Positions 8,530 through 46,310 of a stretch of DNA of 64,000 bases are shown here, piece by piece. The notes below the pieces were generated by a model. The model was given only the letters and a program-made list of their open reading frames with translations. It was not told the DNA's origin and ran no database searches. The position numbers and the translations under genes were made by a program. Every line of letters begins with the position of its first letter. Within the stretch, counting starts at the first letter, position 1. The DNA comes from Alphaproteobacteria bacterium UBA1301 (GTDB lineage: Bacteria > Pseudomonadota > Alphaproteobacteria > Micropepsales > Micropepsaceae): NCBI GenBank assembly GCA_002307725.1, contig DBUB01000007.1, positions 136,003-200,002 on the forward strand, given 5' to 3'.

Positions 8530-9534
8530 ATGACCGGCGAAAACTTCGACGTTACGGCAGCTCTTGGCGCCATGCACCTGTTGCCGGTAGACGCGATTGA
8601 TGCGTTGTCGGGCGGGGTCTCCTGCGACGTTTACAAGATCACCGCGCCGGCCCGAACGTTCGTGGTCAAGCGCGCCTTGCCCAAGCTGCGCGTGGCCGCT
8701 GATTGGCGGGCGTCGGCCGAGCGCAGTCATGCGGAAGTCGCCTGGATGCGGCTGGTCGGCGGTATCAATCCCGATTGGGTGCCGCAAATCCTCGGCGAGG
8801 ACCGCCGGCGCCACATCTTCGCGATGGAATATTTCCCGCCCGAAACCCATCCGGTGTGGAAAGCCGAGTTGGCGAGTGGCCGTGCTGATCCTGCTTTCGC
8901 CGCCCAGGTCGGTGTCGCGCTCGCCCGCATACACAGCGAGACGGCCGGCCGTGACGATTTCGCGCGGCAGTTTGCCAATGGCGTTCAGTTCCACGCTTTG
9001 CGCGTCGATGCCTATCTCCTCTTCGCCGCGGCACGTCATCCCGATGTCGCGCCGCAAATCCGCACCATGGCGAAGAGCCTTGGTGCTGCGCGTATCGCAC
9101 TGATGCATGGCGACGTCAGTCCCAAGAACATCCTGGTGGGTCCCGACGGGCCGGTGTTCCTCGATGCCGAGACCAGTTGTTACGGCGATCCGGCGTTTGA
9201 TCTCGCCTTCTGCCTCAACCACCTTCTGCTCAAGGCGGTCTGGCACCCTGAATTTGCCCCCGCTTATGCGGCGTGCTTTGCCGCGTTCGTCGAGGCCTAT
9301 TTTTCGGGCGTCCGTTGGGAGGCGCGTCACGGCCTTGAGCGGCGTACCGCCGGACTGCTCGCTGTCTTCCTGCTGGCGCGGATCGACGGCAAATCGCCAG
9401 TGGAATACCTCACCACCTACGCCGACCAAATATTCGTGCGCACGCTGGCCAAGGAATTTCTCGCCGACATCCCCAGCCGCTTGCAAGACATGCAGGACCG
9501 CTGGACCGAGGCGCTGTCGTCCCGTCGAATGTAG
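8530..9534 (+). CDS. aminoglycoside phosphotransferase (APH)/choline-kinase-fold family kinase
   Basis: 334 aa. Catalytic-loop-like LMHGDVSPKNILV followed by FLDAETSCYGDPAFDLAF is the APH/MtnK-type kinase core. Confidence 0.7.
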   Translation: MTGENFDVTAALGAMHLLPVDAIDALSGGVSCDVYKITAPARTFVVKRALPKLRVAADWRASAERSHAEVAWMRLVGGINPDWVPQILGEDRRRHIFAMEYFPPETHPVWKAELASGRADPAFAAQVGVALARIHSETAGRDDFARQFANGVQFHALRVDAYLLFAAARHPDVAPQIRTMAKSLGAARIALMHGDVSPKNILVGPDGPVFLDAETSCYGDPAFDLAFCLNHLLLKAVWHPEFAPAYAACFAAFVEAYFSGVRWEARHGLERRTAGLLAVFLLARIDGKSPVEYLTTYADQIFVRTLAKEFLADIPSRLQDMQDRWTEALSSRRM

Positions 9535-9948
9535 CCGCGGAGCGCTTGCCGAAGCCGATCGTGCCAGCGTGTTCGGCCGGTGGGTGCGCTTGACGGCGTG
9601 CGCAAGAGCCGGCTGGCGAAGGGTTGAACTGCAAAAAACGAAAAAAGTGAATTCAATTCGCCGATTTTCCCGTTAAGCCGCGGCAGCAGTAGAATAATCG
9701 CCTTGCCAGCCGGGCCCGCGAACCGCACGTGGAACGACCGGCGCGATAGCGGCGGATGCGAGAAACTGCCGGAATCGAATTCGAATCCTTCTAAACTGCG
9801 CGCACAGGAATTTGCAACTGTGTTGCAGTGCGTACGATGTATCCAACACGGTCAAAGAACACTTTTGACATAGGTACGTCCGGCGCCATTTCAAGAGGAC
9901 TGGATGTCTGAAATCGGCTCAATATCTGCCCTTTGGTGAACGGGGAAG

Positions 9949-10719
9949 ATGCGCCAACACCGGCCATTCAAGCTTGCCCGCAAGCGTGCGCTGCATAGGT
10001 CTTTGGTGCTAATAGAGAGGGAGGGGGTGCTCGCCGTGGCTAATGAGCCATCTATCGAACTGATCGGCGCAATCCGGGCGCTTGTCGCGGAGCAGACAAA
10101 CGTCGCCATTGAAGACATCACTGTCGAGACAACACTAGCGAGCGATCTAGGTATCGACGGCGATGATGCTTGGGAATTGCTTGAGAAATACGCAGAGAAG
10201 TTCAACGTCTCGATGCGCGGGTTTGTGTTCCTAGACCACTTCGATTGGGAAGGTATGGACCCAATCAGGCCGATAATCATTTTGCTGCTTCAAATCTGTT
10301 GGCCTCGCTTCCGTCGCCTTTGGCGAGAGGCGAAGGCAAACGAGCGGGAAATCACGATCCGACATCTCGCAATCTGCGCCACTCTTGAACACTGGGTCCC
10401 GTCGGGCGTTCCAAAGCGACCCCACTGGCGGAACCGGCGTGGCTCGACGCTTAGCCGACTGCTTATTGCGGGCTTTGCTCTCATCATGTTTCTGATCGCG
10501 GAAAGCGTCGCGTGCTTGATATTCGTCGGTACTGTAGCCGGTAGCGTTTTGGCGTCTTTCCTAGCCGTCGAAGCGCTGCTTGTGAGCCGCCTTTCAAACG
10601 CACTAATCCCCGCGGTGGTTGGCATCTGCTGCATCGCTGCCTTGGGTTGGATGTTCGCCCATACGCGATGGTATTTGTCTGCCAAAGAAGTCTGGCAGCG
10701 GGTCTCGCCGGTTGCGTAA
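9949..10719 (+). CDS. hypothetical protein: acyl-carrier-like (DUF1493-like) N-terminal domain fused to a C-terminal multi-TM region
   Basis: 256 aa ORF in a visibly lower-GC stretch. The N-terminal IELIGAIRALVAEQTNVAIEDITVETTLASDLGIDGDDAWELLEKYAEKFNV resembles an ACP-like helical bundle without the phosphopantetheinyl Ser. The C-terminal half has about 3 hydrophobic helices. Start uncertain (a GTG near 10036 is also possible). Confidence 0.5.
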   Translation: MRQHRPFKLARKRALHRSLVLIEREGVLAVANEPSIELIGAIRALVAEQTNVAIEDITVETTLASDLGIDGDDAWELLEKYAEKFNVSMRGFVFLDHFDWEGMDPIRPIIILLLQICWPRFRRLWREAKANEREITIRHLAICATLEHWVPSGVPKRPHWRNRRGSTLSRLLIAGFALIMFLIAESVACLIFVGTVAGSVLASFLAVEALLVSRLSNALIPAVVGICCIAALGWMFAHTRWYLSAKEVWQRVSPVA

Positions 10720-10831: not shown

Positions 10832-10894
10832 TGTCATCCCCAGCCGAGCAGGCGCGCGTGCGCGCGCTTGGGAAGGGAAGGGGATCCAGGTGTT
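10832..10894 (+). repeat. REP/MITE-like GC-rich repeat unit (copy A1)
   Basis: tgtcatccccagccgagcaggcgcgcgtgcgcgcgcttgggaagggaaggggatccaggtgtt. Same termini (tgtcatcccc ... gggaaggg-atccaggtgtt) as copy B1 at 37317-37374; internal GC palindrome. Confidence 0.7.
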
Positions 10895-10962
10895 ATCGGC
10901 GTGGCGATCTTGAAGGTGAAGTAATGGCTGTGCGCCGCTTGCGACGGCGTGCCAAGTGTTTT

Positions 10963-11015
10963 CACCTGGGTCCCCTTCCCTCACGCGGCTACGCCGCGTT
11001 CGCCGGGGATGACAG
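10963..11015 (-). repeat. REP/MITE-like GC-rich repeat unit (copy A2, inverted relative to A1)
   Basis: Reverse complement reads ctgtcatccccggcgaacgcggcgtagccgcgtgagggaaggggacccaggtgaa, the same family as A1, B1 and B2. Confidence 0.7.
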
Positions 11016-13111: not shown

Positions 13112-14065
<954 letters not shown>

Positions 14066-14076
14066 GCAGGTCGGGC

Positions 14077-14973
14077 ATGGATTGGGACAAGCTTCGCATC
14101 TTCCATGCGGTGGCGTCCGCCGGAAGTTTCACCCATGCCGGACAGATGCTGACTCTCAGCCAGTCGGCGGTCAGCCGCCAGATCAGCGCGCTTGAGGAAG
14201 AGATCAACACGCCGTTGTTTCAGCGCCACGCCCGTGGCCTGACGCTGACCGATGAAGGCGAGATGCTGTACGCCGCGGTCTCGGACGTGCTGGCGCGTCT
14301 GGCGCAAGCCGAAGAGGCGCTCAAAAACGTCCATGATGCGCCGCGCGGCTCGCTGAAAGTGACGTCCACCCATGGCATCGGCTCCTATTGGCTGATTCCA
14401 CGGCTCGGCAATCTCCTCAAGGAATGCCCAGAGCTGGAAGTGCATCTGATGCTGGAAGACCGCGAACTCGACTTGTCGCAGCGCGAAGCCGATGTCGCCA
14501 TCCGCATGCGGGCGCCGGTACAGGCCGATCTGATCCAGCGCAAGCTGTTCACCGTCCACTATCATGTTTACGCGGCGCAGGCATATCTCGACGTCCATGG
14601 CACGCCGCTGCGCTGCGAAGACCTCATCGACCACACCATCATTTCCTACGGCGAGACCGCGCCGGCCGAAGTGCGCGACATCAACTGGCTGGTCGAACAG
14701 TGCAAACGCACCGGACACAGCACCGGCAAGGGCCGCATCATCCGGATCAACAATGTGACGGGTGTGCTCAACGCTGCGCTGACTGGGCTAGGAATAGTTT
14801 CTATTCCCGATTACGTCGCCATCCGGTACCCCGAGCTCGTCCGCATTCTGCCCGATGTTCCGGGCCCGAGCTTCGATGTGCATTTGGTTTACGCGGATTC
14901 CTTGCGCCAATCCAAGCGGGTAGCGGCGTTCCGCGATTTTCTGGTCCACGAAGCCAAAGATTGGCATTACTGA
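14077..14973 (+). CDS. LysR family transcriptional regulator
   Basis: ORF 14014..14973 trimmed to MDWDKLRIFHAVASAGSFTHAGQMLTLSQSAVSRQISALEEE (LysR HTH), followed by a substrate-binding domain. Confidence 0.88.
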   Translation: MDWDKLRIFHAVASAGSFTHAGQMLTLSQSAVSRQISALEEEINTPLFQRHARGLTLTDEGEMLYAAVSDVLARLAQAEEALKNVHDAPRGSLKVTSTHGIGSYWLIPRLGNLLKECPELEVHLMLEDRELDLSQREADVAIRMRAPVQADLIQRKLFTVHYHVYAAQAYLDVHGTPLRCEDLIDHTIISYGETAPAEVRDINWLVEQCKRTGHSTGKGRIIRINNVTGVLNAALTGLGIVSIPDYVAIRYPELVRILPDVPGPSFDVHLVYADSLRQSKRVAAFRDFLVHEAKDWHY

Positions 14974-15140
14974 CGCTTCGAGACGGCTTGAAACCGCTCC
15001 AATCGCACCTATCTAGAGTGCACGGCGGTTCTTCCCCCCAAGGACTTGCCGGGTGGCGGTATCTCCCGCCGCGAGAGCTGGGCAGCCCCCCGCCGCCCAG
15101 CTCGGCTCGCGCCCCAACCGCGCGAGCGATCCCAAGCAGA

Positions 15141-15175
15141 ATTGCCGGAGCGCCCCCCGCTCCGGCAATTTTTTG
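15141..15175 (+). terminator. Rho-independent terminator (12-bp GC stem + T6), about 170 nt downstream of the LysR gene
   Basis: attgccggagcg-ccccc-cgctccggcaat followed by tttttt. Confidence 0.65.
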
Positions 15176-15272
15176 TATTAAGTGGGAGCCCTTTCGATTC
15201 GGTTGGTGAATTCGCGGGGGGCGATTTTGGTCTGGCGCGCATTTTCCAACTGCGCTTCGTGGGAGGTACCTG

Positions 15273-15869
15273 ATGTCGTTTTGGAAGAATTTTACCCGTC
15301 TCGCCGTCGTCGCTGCGCTGGGTGTGGGTCTTGCCGGCTGCGGCATCAACAAGATTCCAGCTCAGGATGAAAAGGTGAAAGCCGCCTGGAGCGAGGTGCA
15401 GAACCAATATCAGCGCCGCGCCGATCTGGTGCCGAATCTGGTCAACACGGTCAAGGGCTATGCCAAGCAGGAGTCGTCGGTCCTGACGGCGGTGACCGAA
15501 GCGCGCGCGAAAGCGACGCAGACCGTGCTCCCGGAAAAAGTCGCGACCGATCCGGAAGCCTTCAAGCAGTATGAGGCCAGCCAGGCGCGACTGTCGGGCG
15601 CTCTCGGCCGTCTCTTGGCGATCAGCGAGAATTATCCCGACCTCAAGTCGAACCAGAACTTCATTGCCTTGCAGGCCCAGCTTGAAGGCACCGAGAACCG
15701 CATCACCGTGGCGCGCCGCGACTACATCCAGGAAGTGCAGGCGTTCAACACCATGCTGCGCACCATTCCATCACGTTGGACGGCCTCGATCTTCTATCCG
15801 GAGTTGAAGCCCTATCCGAGCTTCACCACCACCGAGAAGAACCAGTCCGCCCCGACCGTATCGTTTTAG
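15273..15869 (+). CDS. lemA: LemA family lipoprotein
   Basis: 198 aa. Lipobox LAGC; the WSEVQNQYQRRADLVPNLVNTVKGYA and ENYPDLKSNQNF motifs are typical of LemA. Confidence 0.88.
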   Translation: MSFWKNFTRLAVVAALGVGLAGCGINKIPAQDEKVKAAWSEVQNQYQRRADLVPNLVNTVKGYAKQESSVLTAVTEARAKATQTVLPEKVATDPEAFKQYEASQARLSGALGRLLAISENYPDLKSNQNFIALQAQLEGTENRITVARRDYIQEVQAFNTMLRTIPSRWTASIFYPELKPYPSFTTTEKNQSAPTVSF

Positions 15870-25653: not shown

Positions 25654-25664
25654 ACGCCGCTCTC

Positions 25665-26012
25665 TCACTTCCACTCGTGAAACGCGAAAAACGCCGCGCC
25701 AACCAAGAGCGCGAAGGCGACGATGTGATTCCACCGAATCGCTTCGCCGAGATAGAATGTCGAGAACACCGCGAACACACCGAGCGTGATCACTTCCTGC
25801 ATGGTCTTGAGTTGAGCCGCCGAATAGACGGTGTAGCCGATGCGGTTGGCGGGTACGGCAAGGCAGTATTCGAACAAGGCGATGCCCCAGCTCACCGGGA
25901 TCACCAGCCACAACGACACGGACGGGAACTTAAGTTGGCCGTACCAGGCGAACGTCATGAACACGTTGGAACACAACAACAGAATCACGGGCGCTACAAA
26001 CGGCCAACGCAT
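25665..26012 (-). CDS. DMT superfamily small membrane protein (DUF486 family)
   Basis: 115 aa with four hydrophobic helices. MRWPFVAPVILLLCSNVFMTFAWYGQLKF is typical of DUF486. Confidence 0.75.
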   Translation of the reverse strand: MRWPFVAPVILLLCSNVFMTFAWYGQLKFPSVSLWLVIPVSWGIALFEYCLAVPANRIGYTVYSAAQLKTMQEVITLGVFAVFSTFYLGEAIRWNHIVAFALLVGAAFFAFHEWK

Positions 26013-35566: not shown

Positions 35567-37273
35567 ATGACGGTTGCGGCAAGTTCGGAAGGTTTTGCGG
35601 GCGTTCTCGGCTGGGCGGCGCGCCGTCCCCGGCTGGTCTTGGCGCTGTTCTGCCTCGTCCTGTGGGCGCCGGGCGTGTTCAGCTTGCCGCCGCTCGACCG
35701 TGACGAGAGCCGCTTTGCCCAGGCCTCCAAGCAGATGCTGGAGACCGGCGATGTGGTCGATATCCGCTTCGGCCATGTCCCGCGCTACAAGAAACCGGCC
35801 GGCATCTACTGGATGCAGGCGGTCGCCACGGCCGTCGCCGGGTTCGGCGAAAAGACCCACATCTGGACCTATCGCCTGCCGTCCTTGCTTGGCGGCATCG
35901 CGGCGGTGTGGCTGACCTTTTGGTGCGCCGCTGCGTTCCTCCGGCGCGAGGTGGCGCTCTTGGCTGGCGCTTTGCTCGGCGGCACTTTGCTGATGACGGG
36001 CGAAGCCACCATCGCCACCACCGATGCGGTTCTCACCGCCTGCATCGTGGGGGCGCAAGCGGTGCTGCTCAGGGTTTGGCTTGGGGCCAAGGGCGCTGCC
36101 GCACCACCGTCGCGGCTGGTGGTGCTCGCCGGCTGGGTCTGTGTCGGACTTGCGATTCTGGTGAAGGGCCCGCCGGTCTTCATCCCGTTCCTCACTGCCG
36201 CCGTGCTTTGCTGTTGGGATCGCGAATGGCGCTGGCTGGGGGCCACCCGTCCGCTGTCCGGCATCGCTATCGTGCTTGTCATGGTGGCGCCGTGGGTCGT
36301 CGCCATTGGGCTGAAGAGCCATTGGCAGTTCTTCCAGCAGTCGCTGGGGAACGACTTTGCCACCAAACTCGCTGGCGGCCAGGAGAGCCATGGATTTCCG
36401 CCCGGCTATTTCCTTGTCGCCCTGACGCCGTCGTTCTGGCCGGCGATTCTGTTCCTGTTGCCGGGCTTGGTCGCGGCCTTGCGCCGTCACAAAGACCCGG
36501 CGATCCGCTTCCTCCTGGTCTGGGCGGCGACGTGGATCGCCTTCGAGCTGGTTCCGACCAAACTGCCGCACTACGTGCTGCCGATCTATCCGGCGCTCGC
36601 CATCCTTGCGGCGCTGTGGGCGGCGTGGCCGCGGGGGGCCGAGACGGTGTGGGACCGGATCGTGTTTTACCTTGCACCGGTGCAGTTTGCGCTGGCCGCA
36701 CTGGCGCTGGCCGCCGGTCTTTTCATCCTGCCGCAAAGGTTCGCTCTCCAGCCAAGCATGTGGGTCGCTATCCCGGCGCTGGTGTTGGTGGGCCTGGCGA
36801 TCGCCGCACTGATCTTCTATTTCCGGCGCCGGATGGTGGTGGCGGCGGTCATCGCACTGGCGGCGCCGCTGATCGTCTATCCGGTTCTCACCGCGGGCAT
36901 CGGCCCCAATCTGTCACGGATCTGGGTGAGCCCGCGTCTGGCCGCGATGGTGCAGTCCTTGGCGCGTCCGGGCGATCCGCCGCCTGCGCTCGCTGGTTAC
37001 ATCGAGCCGAGCATGCTGTTCCTCCTCGGTACCGAGACGCGGCTGACCGACAGCGGCGCCTCCGCCGCCGACGCCAAGGCGGGCGAGGGGGGGCTTGCGG
37101 TGATCGAGGAGCGCGAACAGGCCGCCTTCATGGCGCGGCTCAAGGAGAAGGAGATTGAGGCGGTGGAACTCGGGTCGGTCGACGGCCTCAACTACTCCAA
37201 CGGCCGCAAGGTGCTGATCCGGGTCTGGCGCGTCGCCCCGCTGACCGAAACCCCCGCTCCCCCGGCCGAGTGA
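35567..37273 (+). CDS. ArnT/PMT-like family 39 glycosyltransferase (lipid A or envelope glycosylation)
   Basis: 568 aa, more than 10 TM helices. N-terminal loop motif PPLDRDESRFAQASKQMLETGDVVDIRF...RYKKPAGIYW is typical of the GT39/GT83 ArnT-like family. Confidence 0.85.
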   Translation: MTVAASSEGFAGVLGWAARRPRLVLALFCLVLWAPGVFSLPPLDRDESRFAQASKQMLETGDVVDIRFGHVPRYKKPAGIYWMQAVATAVAGFGEKTHIWTYRLPSLLGGIAAVWLTFWCAAAFLRREVALLAGALLGGTLLMTGEATIATTDAVLTACIVGAQAVLLRVWLGAKGAAAPPSRLVVLAGWVCVGLAILVKGPPVFIPFLTAAVLCCWDREWRWLGATRPLSGIAIVLVMVAPWVVAIGLKSHWQFFQQSLGNDFATKLAGGQESHGFPPGYFLVALTPSFWPAILFLLPGLVAALRRHKDPAIRFLLVWAATWIAFELVPTKLPHYVLPIYPALAILAALWAAWPRGAETVWDRIVFYLAPVQFALAALALAAGLFILPQRFALQPSMWVAIPALVLVGLAIAALIFYFRRRMVVAAVIALAAPLIVYPVLTAGIGPNLSRIWVSPRLAAMVQSLARPGDPPPALAGYIEPSMLFLLGTETRLTDSGASAADAKAGEGGLAVIEEREQAAFMARLKEKEIEAVELGSVDGLNYSNGRKVLIRVWRVAPLTETPAPPAE

Positions 37274-37316
37274 GCGGGAAATCCTTTGTTCACAGGCTTT
37301 TTGGTACGTCCAAAAT

Positions 37317-37374
37317 CTGTCATCCCCGGCGCGCACCACGCGCAGCGCGCGTGAGGGAAGGGCATCCAGGTGTT
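37317..37374 (+). repeat. REP/MITE-like GC-rich repeat unit (copy B1)
   Basis: ctgtcatccccggcgcgcaccacgcgcagcgcgcgtgagggaagggcatccaggtgtt. Confidence 0.7.
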
Positions 37375-37434
37375 GGAGACCCATCCGATAGTAGGGATTT
37401 GGCACGGCTCATTTGCGCGGGCGAACCAACGTCG

Positions 37435-37490
37435 CGACCTGGGTTCCCTTCCCCTCGCGGCGCGGCGCTTGCTCGGCCGGGAATGACATG
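37435..37490 (-). repeat. REP/MITE-like GC-rich repeat unit (copy B2, inverted relative to B1)
   Basis: Reverse complement reads catgtcattcccggccgagcaagcgccgcgccgcgaggggaagggaacccaggtcg. Confidence 0.65.
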
Positions 37491-37662
37491 GCGTGGTGCT
37501 TGGTGCCTCTCGTCGTCCCCATCTCTCTTGCACTCTTCCTTCGCTTTCACTTGACGGGCGCGAGCAACGTACTAATGATCGCCGCGTTCGTTGCCTCGGG
37601 CGATGAGGAGTCGTTGTGGCTCTTGCACTGATGGCAGCGGTTCGGAGCGTCATGAGACGACG

Positions 37663-38943
37663 ATGAGTCTCCAAGCACTGCGGGGGCGTGACCTCAAACC
37701 TCCGCTACAGCCCGTCCAAGAGCGACCGGCATCCTCCCTCAAGGACACGCCACCTCAGACCAAGCCCGCTCGGGCTATTCCGCGATTCCCCGTCAATCCC
37801 CAGACCCGCGCATTTTACCGCCGCTTTTTCCCCGGCACGTCGACCGCTGAATGGAACGACTGGCGCTGGCAGATGCGTTCCCGCATCCGGGGTCTCGCCG
37901 AACTCAGCCGGATTTTCACCCTCTCCGCCGATGAACGCGACGCTGCCGAGCGCCACCAGGGCGCCCTGCCGGTCGGCATTACGCCCTATTACGCCTCGCT
38001 GATGGGGCTCGACGATCCCACCGAACCCTTGCGCCGCACCCATATCATGACCGGCGACGAGTACCGCCTCAGCCCTGGCGAGGGCGATGATCCCTTAAGC
38101 GAAGACCACGACACCGTCGTGCCCGGCATCGTCCATCGCTATCCCGACCGGGTCCTGTTCCTCACCACCGGCACCTGCTCGACCTATTGCCGCTATTGCA
38201 CGCGGGCCCGCGTCGTCGGCAATCCGGGTGGCGAGTACCAGTTCGCCATGAAGCAATGGGAACAGGCGCTGGCTTATTTGGAGGTCCATACCGAGGTCCG
38301 CGACGTGCTTTTGTCCGGCGGTGATCCGTTCACCATCGGCGACGACAAGCTCGATTGGCTGCTGACGCGGCTGCGGGCGATGAAACACATCGAATTCCTG
38401 CGCATCGGCACCAAAATGCCGATCGTGCTGCCGCAGCGGATCACCAAAGACTTCGCCAAGATGCTGAAGAAGCATCATCCGCTGTTCATCAGTCTGCACG
38501 TCACCCACCCCAAGGAACTCACCGACGAAATGCGCGAGTCGACCGGCCGGCTGGCCGACGCCGGTATTCCGCTCGGTTCGCAGACGGTGCTGCTCAAAGG
38601 CATCAATGACGATCCGGCGGTGATGGTGCCGCTGATGCAGGGTCTGCTCACTTGCCGGGTGAAGCCCTATTACCTTTATGCCTGCGACCCGATCCGGGGC
38701 TCGGCCCATTTCCGTGGCGATGTCGAGAAGGGTCTGGAAATCATCAAGGCGTTGCGCGGCCACACCACCGGCTACGCCACGCCGATCTTTGCCATCGACG
38801 CGCCTGGCGGTGGCGGCAAAATCCAAATTGCCCCCGACAGCATCGTCGGCCGCAACGGCAACGATCTGTTGCTGCGGAATTTCGAAGGCAAGATCTACAG
38901 CTACCCCGATCCCGGTGGCACGCTGGGCATAGACAAAGAATAA
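37663..38943 (+). CDS. lysine-2,3-aminomutase (KamA) family radical SAM aminomutase, substrate unassigned
   Basis: ORF 37591..38943 trimmed to the ATG at 37663. Radical SAM CSTYCRYCTR (CxxxCxxC), GGDP, and PYYLYACDPIRGSAHFR motifs are typical of the KamA/EpmB family. Confidence 0.88.
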   Translation: MSLQALRGRDLKPPLQPVQERPASSLKDTPPQTKPARAIPRFPVNPQTRAFYRRFFPGTSTAEWNDWRWQMRSRIRGLAELSRIFTLSADERDAAERHQGALPVGITPYYASLMGLDDPTEPLRRTHIMTGDEYRLSPGEGDDPLSEDHDTVVPGIVHRYPDRVLFLTTGTCSTYCRYCTRARVVGNPGGEYQFAMKQWEQALAYLEVHTEVRDVLLSGGDPFTIGDDKLDWLLTRLRAMKHIEFLRIGTKMPIVLPQRITKDFAKMLKKHHPLFISLHVTHPKELTDEMRESTGRLADAGIPLGSQTVLLKGINDDPAVMVPLMQGLLTCRVKPYYLYACDPIRGSAHFRGDVEKGLEIIKALRGHTTGYATPIFAIDAPGGGGKIQIAPDSIVGRNGNDLLLRNFEGKIYSYPDPGGTLGIDKE

Positions 38944-39182
38944 GCAAGCGTGGAGCCCCCCCGCGCGTAACCTGCCACAAGGGGAGGAGTATCGCATATG
39001 ATGAGAGTGTCATGGCCCGTAACTGCGGGCCATCCAGGTCACGCAAGTACCGTCGTTTCAAGAAAGGCCGGAATTTCATGGCGAATGTGGAGCAACACCA
39101 ACTAGGTCGCCCGCATTTGCGGGCGATGACACAGAGGGTGCGACGGCCTATGCGATTCCCCGGTCACAAGGGGTGGTAATTA

Positions 39183-40172
39183 ATGCGTATCGGCGTCACC
39201 TATGATTTGAAATCCGACTATCTCGCCCAAGGCTGGAGCGCGGAGGACGCGGCCGAGTTCGACAGCGAGATCACCATCGCCGCCATTTGCACCGCGCTTG
39301 CCGCCATGGGGCTGGAGCCCGTCCGCATCGGCACGGTGAAACGCCTCGCCGAACGCCTCGTCGCCGGGGAGCGCTGGGACGGCGTTTTCAATTTTTGCGA
39401 AGGCGTCAAAGGGGTAGGGCGCGAGGCGCAAGTGCCGGCGCTGTTAGAAGCCTACGACATTCCTTACGTCTTCTCCGACACCCTGACGTTAGCGGTCAGT
39501 CTCGACAAAGCCATGTGCAAGCGGATCGTGCGCGACGCTGGCGTGCCGACGCCCGATTTCGCAGTAATCGAAACCCTGGAAGACGCCGCCCGTATCGATC
39601 TTCCTTATCCGCTGTTCCTCAAACCGGTCGCCGAAGGCTCCGGCAAAGGCGTCGACCGCAATTCGCGGGTCAGCGATGCCGCCGCGCTGCAAGTCACCGC
39701 CGCCGATCTGCTCGCGCGCTTCGCCCAGCCGGTGCTGGTGGAGACCTTCCTGCCGGGGCGCGAGTTCACGGTCGGCATCACTGGCACCGGCGCCGAGGCT
39801 GAGGTGCTGGGCGTCACTGAGATCGTGCCGCTGGCGGGTTACGTCGGCGCCGGCTACGGCTACGAGAACAAGCTGGAGCATTGGGAGGTGAAGCTTGAGA
39901 TCGCGCTCGCTCCGCCGGAATTCGCTGCGGCCTCGGGCAATGTGGCGCTGGCGGCTTGGCGGGCGCTGCGCTGCCGCGATGGCGGGCGCATCGACGTGCG
40001 TTGCGATGCTTCCGGCGCCCCCCAGTTCATCGAAGTCAATCCGCTGGCCGGTCTGCGGCCCGAACATTCCGATTTGTGCCTGATCGCGAATTTCGCCGGC
40101 ATCACCTACAACGATCTCATCGCCCGCATCATGGCGTCGTTTTTCCGGCGTCACCCGGACCTCAAACCATGA
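39183..40172 (+). CDS. ATP-grasp enzyme, D-alanine--D-alanine ligase-like (paralog 1)
   Basis: 329 aa. DKAMCKRIVRDAGVPTPDF, PLFLKPVAEGSGKGV, EFTVGI and IEVNPLAGL are ATP-grasp core motifs. Confidence 0.8.
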   Translation: MRIGVTYDLKSDYLAQGWSAEDAAEFDSEITIAAICTALAAMGLEPVRIGTVKRLAERLVAGERWDGVFNFCEGVKGVGREAQVPALLEAYDIPYVFSDTLTLAVSLDKAMCKRIVRDAGVPTPDFAVIETLEDAARIDLPYPLFLKPVAEGSGKGVDRNSRVSDAAALQVTAADLLARFAQPVLVETFLPGREFTVGITGTGAEAEVLGVTEIVPLAGYVGAGYGYENKLEHWEVKLEIALAPPEFAAASGNVALAAWRALRCRDGGRIDVRCDASGAPQFIEVNPLAGLRPEHSDLCLIANFAGITYNDLIARIMASFFRRHPDLKP

Positions 40173-41134
40173 AAATCCTCGTTCTGCATTCCGACGTTCC
40201 GCCCAATGCGCCGCCGGAAGACCAGGACACGTTGATCGCCGCCCGCGCCATCTCCGAGGCGCTGCAGTCGCGTGGCCACAGCGCGCCGCTTGCCACTTTC
40301 GTGGCGGATCGCGAAGCCTTGCGCCGGACGATCGCGCCGCATCGCCCCGATGTCGTCTTTAATCTGGTGGAAGGCATCGATGGGCAGGGGCGCCTCGCCT
40401 ATCTGGCGCCGCAGATGCTGGACGAAATCGGCGTGCGTTATACCGGCGCCGGTGCCCGCTCGCTGATCCTCACCGGCGACAAGCCGCGCAGCAAAAGGAT
40501 GCTGCGCGAGGCGGGTCTACCGACGCCCTTGTGGGCCGAACCGCCGGAATGGCAGGGGCTGGGCGCCGGGCGTTGGATCGTCAAATGCGCCGACGAAGAC
40601 GCTTCGCTCGGTCTCGACGATGGCGCCGTGGTCACTGCCCCTGACGTGGAAGCCCGCGCCGCGGCGTGCCGGGCCCGTTTCGGCGGCCGCTGGTTCGCTG
40701 AGGAATATATCGACGGGCGCGAATTCAACATCGCCATCATCGAGCAGAACGGAGCGCCGCATGTGCTGCCGATGGCCGAGATGATGTTCGTCGGCTGGCC
40801 GGTGGAACGCCCGCGCATCGTCGGCTACACCGCCAAATGGGACGATGCCTCGTTCGAATCCGTCAAAACGGTGCGCCGCTTCGGCATCGAATACCGCGAG
40901 CCCGCCTTGGCGCGCGAACTCAGCTATCAATGCGTCGAGTGCTGGGAGATGTTCGCTTGCCGCGGCACCGCGCGGGTCGATTTCCGTGTTGACATGAACG
41001 GCCACCCCTCGATTCTCGAGATCAATCCCAATCCGGGCATCGCGCCGGATGCGGGCCTTTCCGTCGCCGCAGCGGAAGCGGGGCTCTCTTACGCCGATCT
41101 CATGGAAGGTATCGTTCAGGAAGCCGTGCGATGA
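40169..41134 (+). CDS. ATP-grasp enzyme, D-alanine--D-alanine ligase-like (paralog 2)
   Basis: ORF 39956..41134 trimmed to MKILVLHSDVPPNAPPEDQD at 40169 (ATGA overlap with paralog 1). DKPRSKRMLREAGLPTP, EEYIDGREFNIAII, RVDFRVD and ILEINPNPG motifs. Confidence 0.8.
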   Translation: MKILVLHSDVPPNAPPEDQDTLIAARAISEALQSRGHSAPLATFVADREALRRTIAPHRPDVVFNLVEGIDGQGRLAYLAPQMLDEIGVRYTGAGARSLILTGDKPRSKRMLREAGLPTPLWAEPPEWQGLGAGRWIVKCADEDASLGLDDGAVVTAPDVEARAAACRARFGGRWFAEEYIDGREFNIAIIEQNGAPHVLPMAEMMFVGWPVERPRIVGYTAKWDDASFESVKTVRRFGIEYREPALARELSYQCVECWEMFACRGTARVDFRVDMNGHPSILEINPNPGIAPDAGLSVAAAEAGLSYADLMEGIVQEAVR

Positions 41135-41712
41135 TCGCGCTCAGCCGTGCTTACGCCAGCGTGTTCGGCGCCCCGGTGATCGACCGCATTGACCCGCGCC
41201 TCTTCACCCTTCGCTATTTCGCCGCCTGCATGGATTGCAGCTTCTGCGCTGACCAATGCTGTTCCTATGGCGTCGACATCGACACGGCTAACATCGATGC
41301 CTTGCGCGGTTTGGGGGCAGACTTCGCAGCCTTCGTCGGTGTGCCGCAAAGCGATTGGTTCACCGCCGAACGCAGCGCCGATGCCGAATTTCCCTCCGGC
41401 ACTTACGGCCGCACCCAGACCCGCGACGGCAAATGCGTTTTCGCCGACCGCGGTGGCCGCGGCTGCCGCATCCACGCTTGGTGCCTGCAGCAGGGCCTCG
41501 ATTACCACCGCTACAAACCGCTGGTCTCGACGCTGTTTCCCGTTACCTTCGAATTCGGCGCTTTGGTGCCCTCGCCCGAAACCCTCGACGGCACGCTGGC
41601 CTGTGCCGGAAGCGGCCCAACGCTGTATCAAGGCGCCCGCGACGAACTTGTCTACTATTTCGGCGAAGCCTTCGTTGCCGAACTCGACGCCCATGCAGAT
41701 AGGGCGTGCTGA
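41131..41712 (+). CDS. YkgJ-like CxxCxxCC cysteine-cluster (zinc/iron-chelating) protein
   Basis: 193 aa. CMDCSFCADQCCSYG plus a second cluster GKCVF...GGRGCRIHAWC. ATGA overlap with the upstream ATP-grasp gene. Confidence 0.65.
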   Translation: MIALSRAYASVFGAPVIDRIDPRLFTLRYFAACMDCSFCADQCCSYGVDIDTANIDALRGLGADFAAFVGVPQSDWFTAERSADAEFPSGTYGRTQTRDGKCVFADRGGRGCRIHAWCLQQGLDYHRYKPLVSTLFPVTFEFGALVPSPETLDGTLACAGSGPTLYQGARDELVYYFGEAFVAELDAHADRAC

Positions 41713-41766
41713 CGGCGGACGCGCACGATACACTCACAAGAAGATTCGTCGCCGGGGGGCAAACGC

Positions 41767-42276
41767 TTGAACACCAATTTTCTTCCTTATACGAACCTTG
41801 ACTTGCTCGAGCCCGGCTGCTGCTGCCCGGCGTTCGATCCCAAGGCGTGGGACCAACTCGACCTGCATTTCCGCGACAAGCTTTTCGTGCATTTTCGCAC
41901 CCGCAGCCTGTTCCACATTCCGCTCAATATGAGTGCGGCGTTTTTCGACACCTGGGAAGCGATCAAGGCGGCCGGCGCCGAGGATGGCCAGTTTGCCATC
42001 CTCTCCAACGACGAATCCAAATGGCGTGGCGAGCACTATTTCGCCGTCACCAAAGAGGTGCCAGGCCTTCACAACGTCAGACTCACCGGCGACTTCGTTA
42101 CGCGGGTGTTCGAAGGTCCCTATCGCGACGCCTATATCTGGGTGAACGAGATGCGCGAAGACATCGCGCTGATGGGCCACCGGATGGGCCGCCTGTTTTT
42201 CTATTACACCACCTGCCCCAAATGCGCCGAGCGCCGCGGCAAGAACTATGTGGTGGGTGTGGGGGAAGTGGTGTGA
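41767..42276 (+). CDS. hypothetical protein with CCC and CPKC motifs
   Basis: 169 aa with a probable TTG start. N-terminal LEPGCCCPAFD and C-terminal FFYYTTCPKCAERRGKNYVV. Same strand, 54 nt after the preceding gene. Confidence 0.55.
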   Translation: MNTNFLPYTNLDLLEPGCCCPAFDPKAWDQLDLHFRDKLFVHFRTRSLFHIPLNMSAAFFDTWEAIKAAGAEDGQFAILSNDESKWRGEHYFAVTKEVPGLHNVRLTGDFVTRVFEGPYRDAYIWVNEMREDIALMGHRMGRLFFYYTTCPKCAERRGKNYVVGVGEVV

Positions 42277-42291
42277 GCAGGCGCTGATCTC

Positions 42292-42678
42292 CTACACGTC
42301 GAGATATCCCACCGATTCGATGTCTTCCTCGATGCGTAGCACGCGCAAGGTGCGGCGGTTGCCTCGCCGGTCCTCCCATTCCGCGGTCTGGCCGACGCTG
42401 AGGCCCAAGAGCGCTGCACCGACCGGCGACTGAAGCGAAATCCGGCCGCGTTCGGGATCGACGTCACGCAGCGGCACCACGCGCACCCGTCGGGTCCGTC
42501 CGGTATTCTGGTCGTGATAGACCACCGCTTCGCCAATATCGACGGCGCCGAGACCGCTACGCCGCGGCGTGCGCGCGACGATCCTGGCGCGTTCATGTTC
42601 GCTGTCGGGTGGTGAAAATGGCGGCAGAGTGGCGATTGTTTTCAACGAACGCCTCCTTTTGGACGCGCGCGTGCTCAC
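42292..42678 (-). CDS. GreA/GreB C-terminal-domain family protein (Rnk-like)
   Basis: 128 aa. ISLQSPVGAALLGLSVGQTAEWEDRRGNRRTLRVLRI matches the GreA/B FKBP-like C-terminal domain. Start uncertain. Confidence 0.7.
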   Translation of the reverse strand: MSTRASKRRRSLKTIATLPPFSPPDSEHERARIVARTPRRSGLGAVDIGEAVVYHDQNTGRTRRVRVVPLRDVDPERGRISLQSPVGAALLGLSVGQTAEWEDRRGNRRTLRVLRIEEDIESVGYLDV

Positions 42679-42966
42679 GCCTTAACGGCGGTGGCGCTGG
42701 TCCTGTTGTGGTGATTTCGCGGGCTCTACCCGGACGCGGCAGGAATGCGCGTCCGGGCTCAATTGCCTTTGGTCAGGCGTCCGGCGCGATGCGCGGCTTT
42801 ACGAAGGAACGTTGTCATACCCGAAAGGTAGGTACTGAAACGCGTCATTTCAACGTGCGACACCATGAATAACCAGCAAGAAACCCCATAAAATACGTGT
42901 TAGCGCAATCATCCATAGGTGTACGCGCAACGTGAGAAGGACGGCGTTGTCAAAGGTGTGTGCGCC

Positions 42967-43317
42967 TTACAATCTGATCCCGAATTTTGGCGCCGCCCAG
43001 ATCATCGCGGCATAGAGCACCATCGTCAGCACACATCCCGCCGCTAGCGCCGACCAGAACGCCACGCCGCGCTTCAAAAGAACCGGGATCAAAACGAACA
43101 TCGGCAGCGAAGGCGCGATGAACCACAGCGTGCCGGAAACGTGCGCGGCCATGCGGGCCGGATCGTGGGTGTCGTGCCACAGCCACATCATGCCTAGCAC
43201 CGACACCAGAGGCAGCGACGCGATCAACCCGCCGAAGCCAGGATAACGCTTGGCCACCTCCGACACCGCCGCCACGATGACGCCGGAGAGGGAGGCTTTG
43301 AGGAGAAGATAGAACAT
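42967..43317 (-). CDS. DUF3147 family membrane protein
   Basis: ORF 42967..43410 trimmed to MFYLLLKASLSGVIVAAVSEVAKRYPGFGGLIASLPLVSVLGMMWLW. Confidence 0.7.
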   Translation of the reverse strand: MFYLLLKASLSGVIVAAVSEVAKRYPGFGGLIASLPLVSVLGMMWLWHDTHDPARMAAHVSGTLWFIAPSLPMFVLIPVLLKRGVAFWSALAAGCVLTMVLYAAMIWAAPKFGIRL

Positions 43318-43517
43318 CGGCGACCCCGGGTGCGAAGCAGAAGCAGAGTAGCCGTTCCCTCGCCCCGGATGCAAAAACGTTCGTTCGCGCCGCCGAAGCG
43401 GACATACCAACCCAACAAATTAGGTCTGAGTTGCGCCAAAAGTGCTTTTTGCAAGCGCCTTACAGCAGCCCAAACCTCGAATGACTTCGTGCTTCAGCGG
43501 AATTGTCGTCGTGAAAT

Positions 43518-44819
43518 TCAGTGACTTGTCTTGTCGTAGTTGCGAGGCTCGGGATCGTCCTGCCACAAGGTTTGGAGGCCGTGCGCCAGAAACCGAACGC
43601 GCAGCATGTCATTGCCCTCAATCGCGAAGAGGCCGTCGGGGGCGAGTGGCGTCAGACGGCGCGCTGGCCGGTCGGCCCGCGTCATCACAAGCGAGCCGTC
43701 CGTCGCGGTAATCGCAATCGGACCATATTGTCCCGTCCAAGATTGAAGTGTTCCCATCGGCAGCACGACGGGATGCAAGCGCGCGTTCACCGCCACCCGG
43801 ACCCAGGCATAGTCCGCTCGGTTTTCTTTGGTCACGGATGCTGTTTGGCTCAACCGGTCGAGGAGGTGAATTTGCGCCACATCGAGCGCGAGCAGCGGAT
43901 CGCTTTCAATATCTGGCGCGATTCCAACACCTTCCCAATTGCTGTTACTCACCGGATGAACGGGGCGCCCGAAGGAAATGCTGAAGACATAACCGCCGGG
44001 AATTGGCACATATTTGTTGTTGTTGGCAGCACCCACAGTCTTGTTGCCGATCAATACTCCCAGCTTGTATTGCTGCACTTGGTAAGCGAAATCCTCGCCT
44101 GCCGAGCCGACATTGCCGTCGATGAGAACGGCGAGCGGCTTGCCGATCAGTCGTCCGGCCGGAAGATAAGATAATGTGCGCGACTGCACCGGAGCCTTCC
44201 CGGCTTCGAAGAAGGTGTAGAGTGGCAGATCGGCTTTCATGAAATGGCTGACCAGATAGCGCACCGCCGCATGCGAGCCGCCTGGATTGCCGCGCAAATC
44301 GATGATTAGTCCATCACCATCTTTCAGGAAACGCATAGCGTCGTCATAAATGCCGCCGGTTTCATCGTCGATCCACTCAAAGCTCGCGATCTTCAGATAG
44401 CGAAGGTTGCCAGGTAGAATACGCAACTCGGTCAGGCCGTGATGATTGCTCGTGGCGTGGCGGCGCTCATAAGCATCGGTATTTTCCGTCTTCTCGGCTT
44501 TCGCATCTTGCGCAAGGACGTTGGACTGTTCTCGATCATAGAAAAGGTAGAGATGATGGTCGCCGCTGGCCGCGCGGACATCTTCTGTCACCCTTTCGCT
44601 GAATACCGCCGGGGTGGTGTTGTGGTAGCGCCCAGTTTGCAGAGCTGTCTGTAGCTTGTCCGTGATCGCCGCGCGCTTCTCGGGGAAGATATAGCTCTTT
44701 TCGACGACGGTACGAATCGCGGCGACTTCGGCCAAGTGATCCGACGGTTTTTCGGCATTGGCAGCCAAAGCAGGGCTGGCCAGTGCGGCCAAGAGCGCAA
44801 ACGCATATGACAATTTCAT
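43518..44819 (-). CDS. S41 family (tail-specific/IRBP-like) peptidase, secreted
   Basis: 433 aa. Signal peptide MKLSYAFALLAALASPALA; LIIDLRGNPGGS and VLIDGNVGSAGEDFA motifs of S41. Confidence 0.8.
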   Translation of the reverse strand: MKLSYAFALLAALASPALAANAEKPSDHLAEVAAIRTVVEKSYIFPEKRAAITDKLQTALQTGRYHNTTPAVFSERVTEDVRAASGDHHLYLFYDREQSNVLAQDAKAEKTENTDAYERRHATSNHHGLTELRILPGNLRYLKIASFEWIDDETGGIYDDAMRFLKDGDGLIIDLRGNPGGSHAAVRYLVSHFMKADLPLYTFFEAGKAPVQSRTLSYLPAGRLIGKPLAVLIDGNVGSAGEDFAYQVQQYKLGVLIGNKTVGAANNNKYVPIPGGYVFSISFGRPVHPVSNSNWEGVGIAPDIESDPLLALDVAQIHLLDRLSQTASVTKENRADYAWVRVAVNARLHPVVLPMGTLQSWTGQYGPIAITATDGSLVMTRADRPARRLTPLAPDGLFAIEGNDMLRVRFLAHGLQTLWQDDPEPRNYDKTSH

Positions 44820-45307
44820 CGTTTGGACTTCTCCACGGGTGTTTCTCGTTTTTTGCGCTCGGCTGCGATGCGGTCGGAAAAAGAATGCTCGGCGAGCAGC
44901 TTCAAGGTGTTTTTCAAGACGTCCGGCAGGGATAGACCCAACTCGGCATCAAGAGTGCGTGCGGCGGCCTCGGTAATCTCCCATTGCTGCTTCACCAGCG
45001 GCAGTATCGCTTCTGCGGCGGGGCTGAGAGAAATGATGCGCTCGCGTGCGTCGTCGCCGGATGTGATCATCAGCAGCTTGCGTTTCGACATATCGGTAAC
45101 GGTCTGGCTGGCTGCCGAATGGGTGATCCCCGCATGCTGCGAGATGGTGCGGATGGACGCCGGTCCCAGCGTCTGCAGGGCTCGTACAATCGGTGTGTAG
45201 CGCGGTTTGTAGTCGATACCCGTACGCAGGTAAGCCTCTTCTACAGCACCGTCCAGGCATTCGATCAGGTGGCGAAGGAGGGTTCCAAGGGTCGGAGATC
45301 TGGCCAT
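44816..45307 (-). CDS. MarR family transcriptional regulator
   Basis: ORF 44816..45343 trimmed to MARSPTLGTLLRHL. Winged HTH IRTISQHAGITHSAASQTVTDMSKRKLL. The stop overlaps the S41 start (ATGA). Confidence 0.8.
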   Translation of the reverse strand: MARSPTLGTLLRHLIECLDGAVEEAYLRTGIDYKPRYTPIVRALQTLGPASIRTISQHAGITHSAASQTVTDMSKRKLLMITSGDDARERIISLSPAAEAILPLVKQQWEITEAAARTLDAELGLSLPDVLKNTLKLLAEHSFSDRIAAERKKRETPVEKSKR

Positions 45308-45407
45308 TTGAAAATGTATAAGCGCTGTTACATCTCGGTGCAAGAATGTTTTCTGAAAGTCTGACTCAAAAATGGATCCGACGGCTTCGCCCCCGCGTGA
45401 AAATAAC

Positions 45408-46310
45408 TTATGTCAACGGCTCCATCGGCATCTCGACCTTGTGGCGGTATTCGCGCCAGGCGATCAGCAGGCCGGAGGCGATCACCACGGCGGCGCCGAG
45501 GAGCACCATCGCTTCGGGATGTTCGCCGAGCACGAACCAGCCAAGCAGCATCGCCCACACCATCGCGGTGTAATCGAACGGCGCCAGCAGCGAGGGTTCG
45601 CCGTAGCGATAGCAATAGGTCATCAAAACCTGGCCCACACCGCCGAACAGGCCGCAACTGACCAGCCAGAAGATTTGCATCCAGCTCAGCGCCACATGAT
45701 CGAACGCCATCACGATCAGTCCGGCGATGGCGCAGGCGCTCATGAAATAGAACACGATGGCTTCCGAGCGTTCGGTGGCCGACATCTGGCGGATCCACAC
45801 CACGATGAACGCCGACAGCAGCGTGAAGGCCAAGGCATAGAGCACACCCTGCGACAGCTTCAGGGTGATGAGGGCATTCAATCCGCCATGCGGTTCCATC
45901 ATCAACAGGACGCCGGCAAAGCCGATCAGCACCGCCGCCCAGCGCCACGGTCCGGCATGTTCGCGCAACATCAGCGCCGCCAGGACCACCGCAAAGATCG
46001 GCTGCATGAAGCCGAACGCGGTCACGGTGACCAGCGGCAAGAGCGCCAGCGCGGTGAAGTTGGTGAACATGGCGGCAACGCCGACGATTCCACGCACCAC
46101 ATGCACCAGCGGCCGTTCGGTTTTGATCGCCGCGCGTGGCCCCACTGTGAAGCAGGTCCAGATGAACAGCGGCAGCAGCGCGAAGAAGCCGCGGAAGAAC
46201 ACGACCTGGCCGATCGGCACATCGCCCGCCAGCTTGATGGCGCCGTACATGAGGGAGAAGGCGAGGGACTGGCCGAGCTTCAGCGTAATCGCCAGCGCGT
46301 TGTGTCTCAA
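45408..46310 (-). CDS. EamA/DMT family transporter
   Basis: C-terminal 300 codons of the 597-aa track ORF, with ten hydrophobic helices. Proposed TTG start at 46310 overlaps the corA stop (TTGA); the next ATG would delete TM1. Confidence 0.7.
   Translation of the reverse strand: MRHNALAITLKLGQSLAFSLMYGAIKLAGDVPIGQVVFFRGFFALLPLFIWTCFTVGPRAAIKTERPLVHVVRGIVGVAAMFTNFTALALLPLVTVTAFGFMQPIFAVVLAALMLREHAGPWRWAAVLIGFAGVLLMMEPHGGLNALITLKLSQGVLYALAFTLLSAFIVVWIRQMSATERSEAIVFYFMSACAIAGLIVMAFDHVALSWMQIFWLVSCGLFGGVGQVLMTYCYRYGEPSLLAPFDYTAMVWAMLLGWFVLGEHPEAMVLLGAAVVIASGLLIAWREYRHKVEMPMEPLT

Follow-up and report, generated by a model that had tools for sequence, protein, structure and literature searches.

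What does a bacterium make with a lysine-2,3-aminomutase-like enzyme whose gene stands next to those of two ATP-grasp ligases? The question is raised by a locus of Alphaproteobacteria bacterium UBA1301 (Micropepsaceae; GenBank assembly GCA_002307725.1), from which we analysed a stretch of 64,000 nucleotides (nt) of contig DBUB01000007.1 (positions 136,003 to 200,002 of the forward strand), referred to as the window. On its plus strand, a KamA-family radical SAM/pyridoxal-phosphate (PLP) aminomutase of 426 amino acids (aa) with Radical_SAM and LAM_C domains (KamA, 37663-38943, with a second possible start at a TTG codon at 37591) precedes two ligases with Ddl-like folds and Dala_Dala_lig_C domains, Grasp1 (39183-40172, 329 aa) and Grasp2 (40169-41134, 321 aa). 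The closest named relatives of the window proteins belong to Rhizomicrobium (Alphaproteobacteria). Our analysis indicates that these genes are the core of a real, widespread and uncharacterised pathway, a variation on beta-amino-acid formation, ATP-grasp ligation and N-capping. Judging from the protein sequences, we propose with moderate confidence that KamA, Grasp1 and Grasp2 constitute a three-enzyme module for a small beta-lysine-containing compound resembling a di- or tripeptide. The initial annotation of the locus had suggested an operon of five genes, in which a beta-amino acid is made and then ligated at the expense of ATP; this order of events is still the best reading, given the lysine-type residues of KamA and the intact catalytic residues of the ligases.

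Conservation of the cassette across phyla

Species-representative genomes were scanned with an alignment of Grasp2. The scan confirmed at least 584 stretches, of which the 80 best were retained. The loci were picked by Grasp2 similarity alone, and their neighbours were then located by tblastn with the window proteins. Gene order was counted where the upstream flank measured 3.4 kb or more, which applied to 59 loci; in 56 of these KamA, Grasp1 and Grasp2 followed one another in this order on a single strand. The cassette loci come from at least 10 phyla, their carriers including Alphaproteobacteria and Woeseia (Gammaproteobacteria), Smithellaceae, Syntrophaceae and Syntrophobacteraceae (Syntrophia included), Myxococcales, Bacteroidales, Cyclobacteriaceae, a metagenome-assembled genome (MAG) labelled Chitinophaga, Ignavibacteriales, Planctomycetota, Victivallaceae, Acidobacteria, Spirochaetota and Krumholzibacteriia. 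Identity to the window proteins ranged over 49-81% for KamA, 48-77% for Grasp1 and 36-68% for Grasp2, with median intergenic gaps of about 40-50 nt. The neighbourhood is thus conserved far past close relatives. The single functional unit foreseen by the initial annotation holds for the triad and not for its five-gene extent; the usual fourth gene encodes a GNAT acetyltransferase. One exception to the common order, a MAG contig labelled Bordetella with Rhizomicrobium-like sequence (L022), has about 7 kb between Grasp1 and Grasp2 (1003-1980 versus 9001-9966), which may reflect a mobile-element insertion or a misassembly.

Gene fusions tie the enzymes together further. Grasp1 and Grasp2 are a single open reading frame in a myxococcal (L060) and a spirochaetal locus (L070). 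An exhaustive phmmer search with Grasp2 returned 1022 cluster representatives (50% identity) at E <= 1e-30, of which the top 150 were sized. Thirteen of these were 637-731 aa long with two grasp stretches (two PF07478 domains in 3/3 checked), and a further 27, of 487-546 aa, carried Grasp2 at the N-terminus (PF07478 plus GNAT in 6/6 checked). The recurrence of both Grasp1-Grasp2 and Grasp2-GNAT fusions places the two ligases and the GNAT in one pathway. What we observe directly is this co-localisation, these fusions and, as detailed below, the conservation of the active sites.

Active sites of the aminomutase and the two ligases

KamA passed only the cut-off of the general family (TIGR00238, KamA family radical SAM; 329.9 bits against 199.2). 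The best NCBIfam model was that of lysine 2,3-aminomutase AblA (TIGR03820), with 439 bits against a cut-off of 525.4, under which a Bacteroidota orthologue likewise fell (468 bits). The models of glutamate 2,3-aminomutase (TIGR04368; 376 bits against 650), arginine 2,3-aminomutase (348 against 600) and EpmB (TIGR03821; 245.7 against 369.3) also scored under their cut-offs, as did AblA_like_2 (TIGR03822; 291.5 against 396.25), the clade to which the enzyme had initially been assigned and in which it can no longer be placed.

Its residues were mapped onto lysine 2,3-aminomutase (LAM) of Clostridium (C. subterminale; 2A5H, E = 5e-115) in 54 sequences, the window protein included. The CSTYCRYC cluster motif (C125, C129 and C132 of LAM) and the carboxylate-binding Arg134 were kept in all 54 sequences, and the PLP lysine K337 of the GGGGK motif in 53, among them the window protein. 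Asp293 and Asp330, which bind the epsilon-ammonium group in LAM, were Asp/Asp in the window KamA and in 53/54 sequences. Ruzicka and Frey are said to have described, in 2007, a glutamate 2,3-aminomutase with Lys/Asn at this pair. Comparison of the residues that bind the distal group of the substrate, a check proposed with the initial annotation, hence came out as the lysine type: the intermediate should be beta-lysine, and the beta-glutamate that had been offered as an alternative is disfavoured. The clostridial zinc site (Cys268 and a C-terminal CxCxxC) is absent, C268 being replaced by D, S, N or T across the sequences, and the protein ends about 40 residues past GGGGK without a Cys motif.

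The two ligases share about 28% identity, and the best matches of both in Pfam, NCBIfam and the PDB are Ddl, the D-alanine--D-alanine (D-Ala) ligase (PDB E = 2e-23 for Grasp1 and 2.5e-14 for Grasp2). On the Ddl models (NF002378 / TIGR01205) they reached 149.3 and 106.4 bits, respectively, against a cut-off of 243. When 64 Grasp1 and 58 Grasp2 sequences, window included, were mapped onto E. coli DdlB, the residues that serve ATP, Mg and the acyl-phosphate (K97, K144, E180, K215, R255, D257, E270 and N272) were invariant throughout. At the D-Ala-binding positions the two proteins diverged: S150 is T or S in Grasp1 and A in Grasp2, Y216 falls in a gap in Grasp1 and is an invariant W in Grasp2, S281 is S in Grasp1 and A in Grasp2, and L282 is an invariant D in Grasp1 and G in Grasp2. 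Since the catalytic residues are intact and the D-Ala positions altered differently, Grasp1 and Grasp2 are probably both active as ligases, each with a specificity of its own that is not for D-Ala; the concern that they might be bona fide Ddl enzymes is answered by the same scores and replacements.

The fourth gene and its surroundings

In all 44 loci from outside the Rhizomicrobium-like group with room for a further gene, Grasp2 is followed by a small GNAT (about 165 aa, PF00583). No cassette-type GNAT was found within the 64 kb of the window, where Grasp2 is followed by a gene for a YkgJ/DUF3109-like Cys-cluster protein (41131-41712, plus strand, 193 aa; weak DUF3109/CxxCxxCC match). Among the 31 Rhizomicrobium-like loci with room, 21 have the Cys-cluster protein, six a GNAT and four neither, R. 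palustre, for one, carrying Acetyltransf_6 and ProDH-like proteins instead. Both genes occur together in a single locus (L057), in which that of the Cys-cluster protein lies on the other strand. The GNAT and the Cys-cluster protein fill the same slot of the cassette, and the YkgJ-type gene, which had been counted as part of the conserved unit, is confined to Rhizomicrobium-like genomes. In these genomes the stretch from Grasp2 to the conserved EamA/CorA genes (41131-45410 in the window, 13222-15484 in locus L001) is variable, and its contents comprise the Cys-cluster protein, a GNAT, the Acetyltransf_6 and ProDH-like pair, a PALP enzyme, or PF20603, Rnk and S41 peptidase genes.

Besides the small GNAT, 10 of the 80 sampled loci, all among the 44 above, encode a GNAT-HDAC fusion (PF00850), which suggests a cycle of acetylation and deacetylation acting on the product. 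In three Bacteroidota loci the fusion gene is inserted between KamA and Grasp1. The fusion proteins, of about 580-820 aa, lie in or beside the cassette (L039, L040 and L062 in Bacteroidota; L036, L046, L049, L053, L067, L068 and L074), and they share homology with the small cassette GNAT over their GNAT domain. Smithella/Syntrophaceae loci (L044, L056, L059, L073 and L079) encode a DMT_6 (DUF486) membrane protein, a candidate exporter, between Grasp2 and the GNAT; a homologue with 50% identity is encoded in the window on the minus strand at 25656-25997, about 12 kb from the cassette.

The Cys-cluster protein has nine invariant cysteines, namely those of CxxCxxCxxxCC, which corrects the CxxCxxCC motif read earlier, and C102, C112, C118 and C158. 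Its 423 homologous matches are from Rhizomicrobium or Alphaproteobacteria wherever the source is named, most being nameless; many homologues are listed under PF11307 and some are named 'YkgJ family cysteine cluster protein' at source. The AlphaFold model is confident (predicted local distance difference test, pLDDT, 87), and it has no structural neighbour in the PDB at E < 0.001; its matches in BFVD are only uncharacterised phage proteins or phage proteins with a 'zinc- or iron-chelating domain'. The phage DUF3109 member DpdM is an experimentally supported N-methyltransferase that acts on the primary amine of dPreQ1 and has two Cys-rich metal sites (PMC10516641). As in DpdM, the window protein combines an N-terminal Cys motif with four downstream cysteines at similar spacing (PMC10516641), an arrangement consistent with two metal sites. 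It differs from DpdM in that its DUF3109 match is below the gathering threshold, it has no BLAST similarity to phage proteins, and the substrate proposed for it is a small amine and not DNA.

Reading the sequence directly, we found all gene positions of the initial annotation to be correct, together with the ATGA overlaps of Grasp1 with Grasp2 (40169-40172) and of Grasp2 with the Cys-cluster gene (41131-41134), the 54-nt gap between the latter and the next gene, and the motifs CSTYCRYCTR, CCC and CPKC in the window proteins. KamA is separated from Grasp1 by a spacer of 239 nt, so this junction is not tight and translational coupling, earlier ascribed to the whole operon, applies to Grasp1, Grasp2 and the Cys-cluster protein only. 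The spacer contains an inverted-repeat element resembling a miniature inverted-repeat transposable element (MITE) or repetitive extragenic palindromic (REP) sequence, with 31-nt arms (39007-39132; arms 39007-39037 and 39102-39132). A further such element lies between an ArnT-like gene and KamA (37337-37471; arms 37337-37371 and 37437-37471), at the place where a REP-like inverted repeat pair had been noted, and a related copy of it occurs at 10856-10994. The three form a family of elements of about 125-140 nt, in which imperfect inverted arms with a common ...CATCCAGGT motif flank a centre of 64-70 nt. The predicted RNA fold of the KamA-Grasp1 spacer is modestly better than that of shuffled sequence (z = -2.2). 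In a relative with a 95%-identical KamA the spacer is 136 nt of unrelated sequence, which leaves no conserved small gene inside it; a small precursor peptide or gene was considered and rejected, as the sequence is unconserved and occupied by the inverted-repeat element. No riboswitch or other Rfam family was found across 37000-43000 at E <= 1, and intrinsic terminators within the unit were at chance level only.

The gene after that of the Cys-cluster protein encodes a PF20603 'Bact_hydrolase' family protein (41767-42276, plus strand, TTG start, 169 aa), which matches the family model over its full length (198.8 bits against a cut-off of 27) and has no sequence match in the PDB. It lies outside the conserved cassette: its family is a solitary gene, widespread in metagenomes and without any conserved neighbour, and of 80 homologous metagenome loci just one, that of the closest homologue (70% identity), has it near Grasp2 and the Cys-cluster gene. 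It is therefore not retained as the fifth member that the initial annotation had made of it. Four cysteines are kept in the PF20603 homologue that was inspected, in a CxC near the N-terminus and a CPKC near the C-terminus. The downstream boundary is a convergent gene, confirmed as GreA/Rnk-like (42292-42678, minus strand), with a GreA_GreB C-terminal domain (64.2 bits against 26.9) and a score under the Rnk cut-off (NF004396; 68.3 bits against 109). Directly upstream of the cassette, an ArnT-like PMT_2 glycosyltransferase gene (35567-37273 in the window) recurs in 21 Rhizomicrobium-like loci, whereas other phyla lack it at this place; in the three loci with gene calls, the ArnT-like gene has a divergent pair of GT2 and LAB_N genes beside it.

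A proposed pathway and its alternatives

The pathway that we infer, with its substrates, step order, product and role, would start with the conversion of L-lysine to beta-lysine by KamA, as the conservation of its active site suggests. Grasp1 and Grasp2 would then act non-redundantly, each forming one amide bond via an acyl-phosphate intermediate, which would fit their invariant catalytic and divergent substrate residues; between them they would couple beta-lysine to one additional partner or to two, each an amine or a carboxylate, and so yield a compound resembling a di- or tripeptide. In most phyla the small dedicated GNAT would finally N-acetylate a free amine, either on the product or on an intermediate. 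For the Rhizomicrobium-like lineage we speculate that the two-metal YkgJ/DUF3109-like protein takes the place of the GNAT, and that in the window the amine may receive a different cap from it, such as the N-methyl group that DpdM installs. Most likely the product would be a small molecule located in the cytoplasm, for instance a compatible solute or a cation akin to the polyamines, by analogy with N-epsilon-acetyl-beta-lysine, N-acetylglutaminylglutamine amide (NAGGN), N-acetylaspartylglutamate (NAAG) and carnosine. A broader version of the proposal, which we hold only tentatively, is that the cassette produces a beta-lysine metabolite common to at least 10 phyla, for example a di- or tripeptide solute with an N-acetyl-beta-lysyl group, or a cation made of oligo-beta-lysine, and that the Rhizomicrobium-like lineage has exchanged the acetyl cap for a YkgJ/DUF3109-type modification.

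Several known systems come close to the cassette. The AblA/AblB pathway, which makes N-epsilon-acetyl-beta-lysine in methanogens and some bacteria, resembles the cassette in that AblA is the closest model for KamA and that an acetyltransferase is present in most cassettes. It differs by the two ATP-grasp ligases that stand here between aminomutase and acetyltransferase, by the cassette GNAT of about 165 aa, which does not match the AblB model, by the score of KamA under the AblA cut-off, and, for the window, by the lack of any cassette-type GNAT. The NAGGN system (Ngg, a GNAT plus ATP-grasp protein, with AsnO) and the synthesis of NAAG and beta-citrylglutamate by RIMKLA/B likewise combine N-acetylation with ATP-grasp ligation to give a small N-acetylated peptide solute, and GNAT-ATP-grasp fusions are found both in NAGGN synthesis and here. 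The cassette ligases, however, are Ddl-like and not RimK- or cyanophycin-like, the domain order of the fusions is reversed, and the cassette adds a radical SAM aminomutase for a beta-amino acid as well as a second ligase. Carnosine synthase provides a precedent for the ATP-grasp ligation of a beta-amino acid, and RizA/RizB one for tandem L-amino-acid ligases that act in sequence to form di- and tripeptides, although both differ in substrates and genomic setting and are likened to the cassette through the ATP-grasp superfamily only. In the EpmB/EpmA system a KamA-family enzyme makes beta-lysine that a dedicated ligase attaches to an amine, but EpmA is a LysRS paralogue rather than an ATP-grasp enzyme, and the cassette has no linkage to efp and its KamA scores below the EpmB cut-off.

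Several observations weigh against the small-molecule pathway as proposed. KamA lies below every equivalog cut-off, which leaves room for another basic amino acid as its substrate, and the 239-nt spacer with its own inverted-repeat element sets it apart from Grasp1. The other two exceptions to the common gene order (L046 and L051) have no adjacent KamA, and no transporter, regulator or acceptor gene that would indicate a role is conserved in the sampled loci. As to the cap, the Cys-cluster protein scored 22.3 on DUF3109 (PF11307) against a gathering threshold of 33.5, and 17.8 on CxxCxxCC (PF03692, YkgJ) against one of 23, and it gave no similarity to phage genomes by tblastn.

Could the enzymes act on other substrates than those proposed? 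An aminomutase acting on arginine, ornithine or glutamate, with a peptide of another beta-amino acid as the outcome, would be in line with the AblA score of KamA under the cut-off and with its substantial scores on the glutamate and arginine 2,3-aminomutase models; we regard it as unlikely, given that the Asp/Asp pair and R134 are kept as in LAM and that the ranking of the model scores points to lysine. That both ATP-grasp genes encode ordinary peptidoglycan D-Ala-D-Ala ligases, which stand beside KamA by chance, seems hardly credible. Their top matches in Pfam, NCBIfam and the PDB are all Ddl, but both score far below the Ddl cut-off, the D-Ala-binding S150, Y216, S281 and L282 are replaced, the linkage to KamA and the GNAT, gene fusions included, is held across phyla, and a dcw-cluster context is absent.

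Other readings concern the fate of beta-lysine. It might be ligated onto a macromolecule, either a protein, in the manner of RimK or TTL or as EpmA-independent beta-lysylation of elongation factor P (EF-P), or a component of the cell envelope. RimK and TTL are ATP-grasp enzymes of similar size that modify proteins, the only non-metabolic function known for KamA-family enzymes is EF-P beta-lysylation, and the same-strand ArnT-like PMT_2 gene lies upstream in 21 sampled Rhizomicrobium-like loci, with GT2 and LAB_N beside it in three. Yet efp lies near none of the 81 loci and is absent from the window, a conserved candidate gene for an acceptor or precursor is missing and would find no space in intergenic gaps of about 40-50 nt, the PMT_2 gene accompanies the cassette in the Rhizomicrobium group alone, and KamA is well under the EpmB cut-off, which together make modification of a macromolecule improbable. 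Less probable again is a beta-lysine peptide antibiotic, with the GNAT providing self-protection by N-acetylation and the HDAC activation. Antibiotics of the streptothricin type contain beta-lysine, whose amine small GNATs acetylate to confer resistance; tandem ATP-grasp L-amino-acid ligases make peptides of the rhizocticin type; and GNAT and GNAT-HDAC occur together in 10 loci. Against this stands a uniform four-gene core, kept in order over at least 10 phyla that include syntrophs and soil oligotrophs. Tailoring enzymes, a conserved exporter and an immunity gene are all absent, which is atypical for a secondary-metabolite cluster, and a PADLOC match is likewise lacking. An anti-phage defence system was also considered and discarded, PADLOC giving no match.

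Neither NCBIfam (June 2026) nor PADLOC has a specific model for any component of the cassette, and no description of it was found in open-access papers, a coverage that leaves out the ATP-grasp survey of Iyer et al. 2009; a characterised pathway of this composition, which would have undone its novelty, thus came to light neither in curated families nor in the open-access literature. Identifying the product would bring a new beta-lysine-derived compound into bacterial core or stress metabolism and would correct the widespread annotations 'D-alanine--D-alanine ligase' and 'lysine 2,3-aminomutase'. It would also define two new ATP-grasp specificities and possibly a function for a YkgJ/DUF3109-type protein. 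If the YkgJ/DUF3109-type cap proposed for the Rhizomicrobium-like lineage is true, a large orphan family would thereby acquire a small-molecule substrate for the first time.

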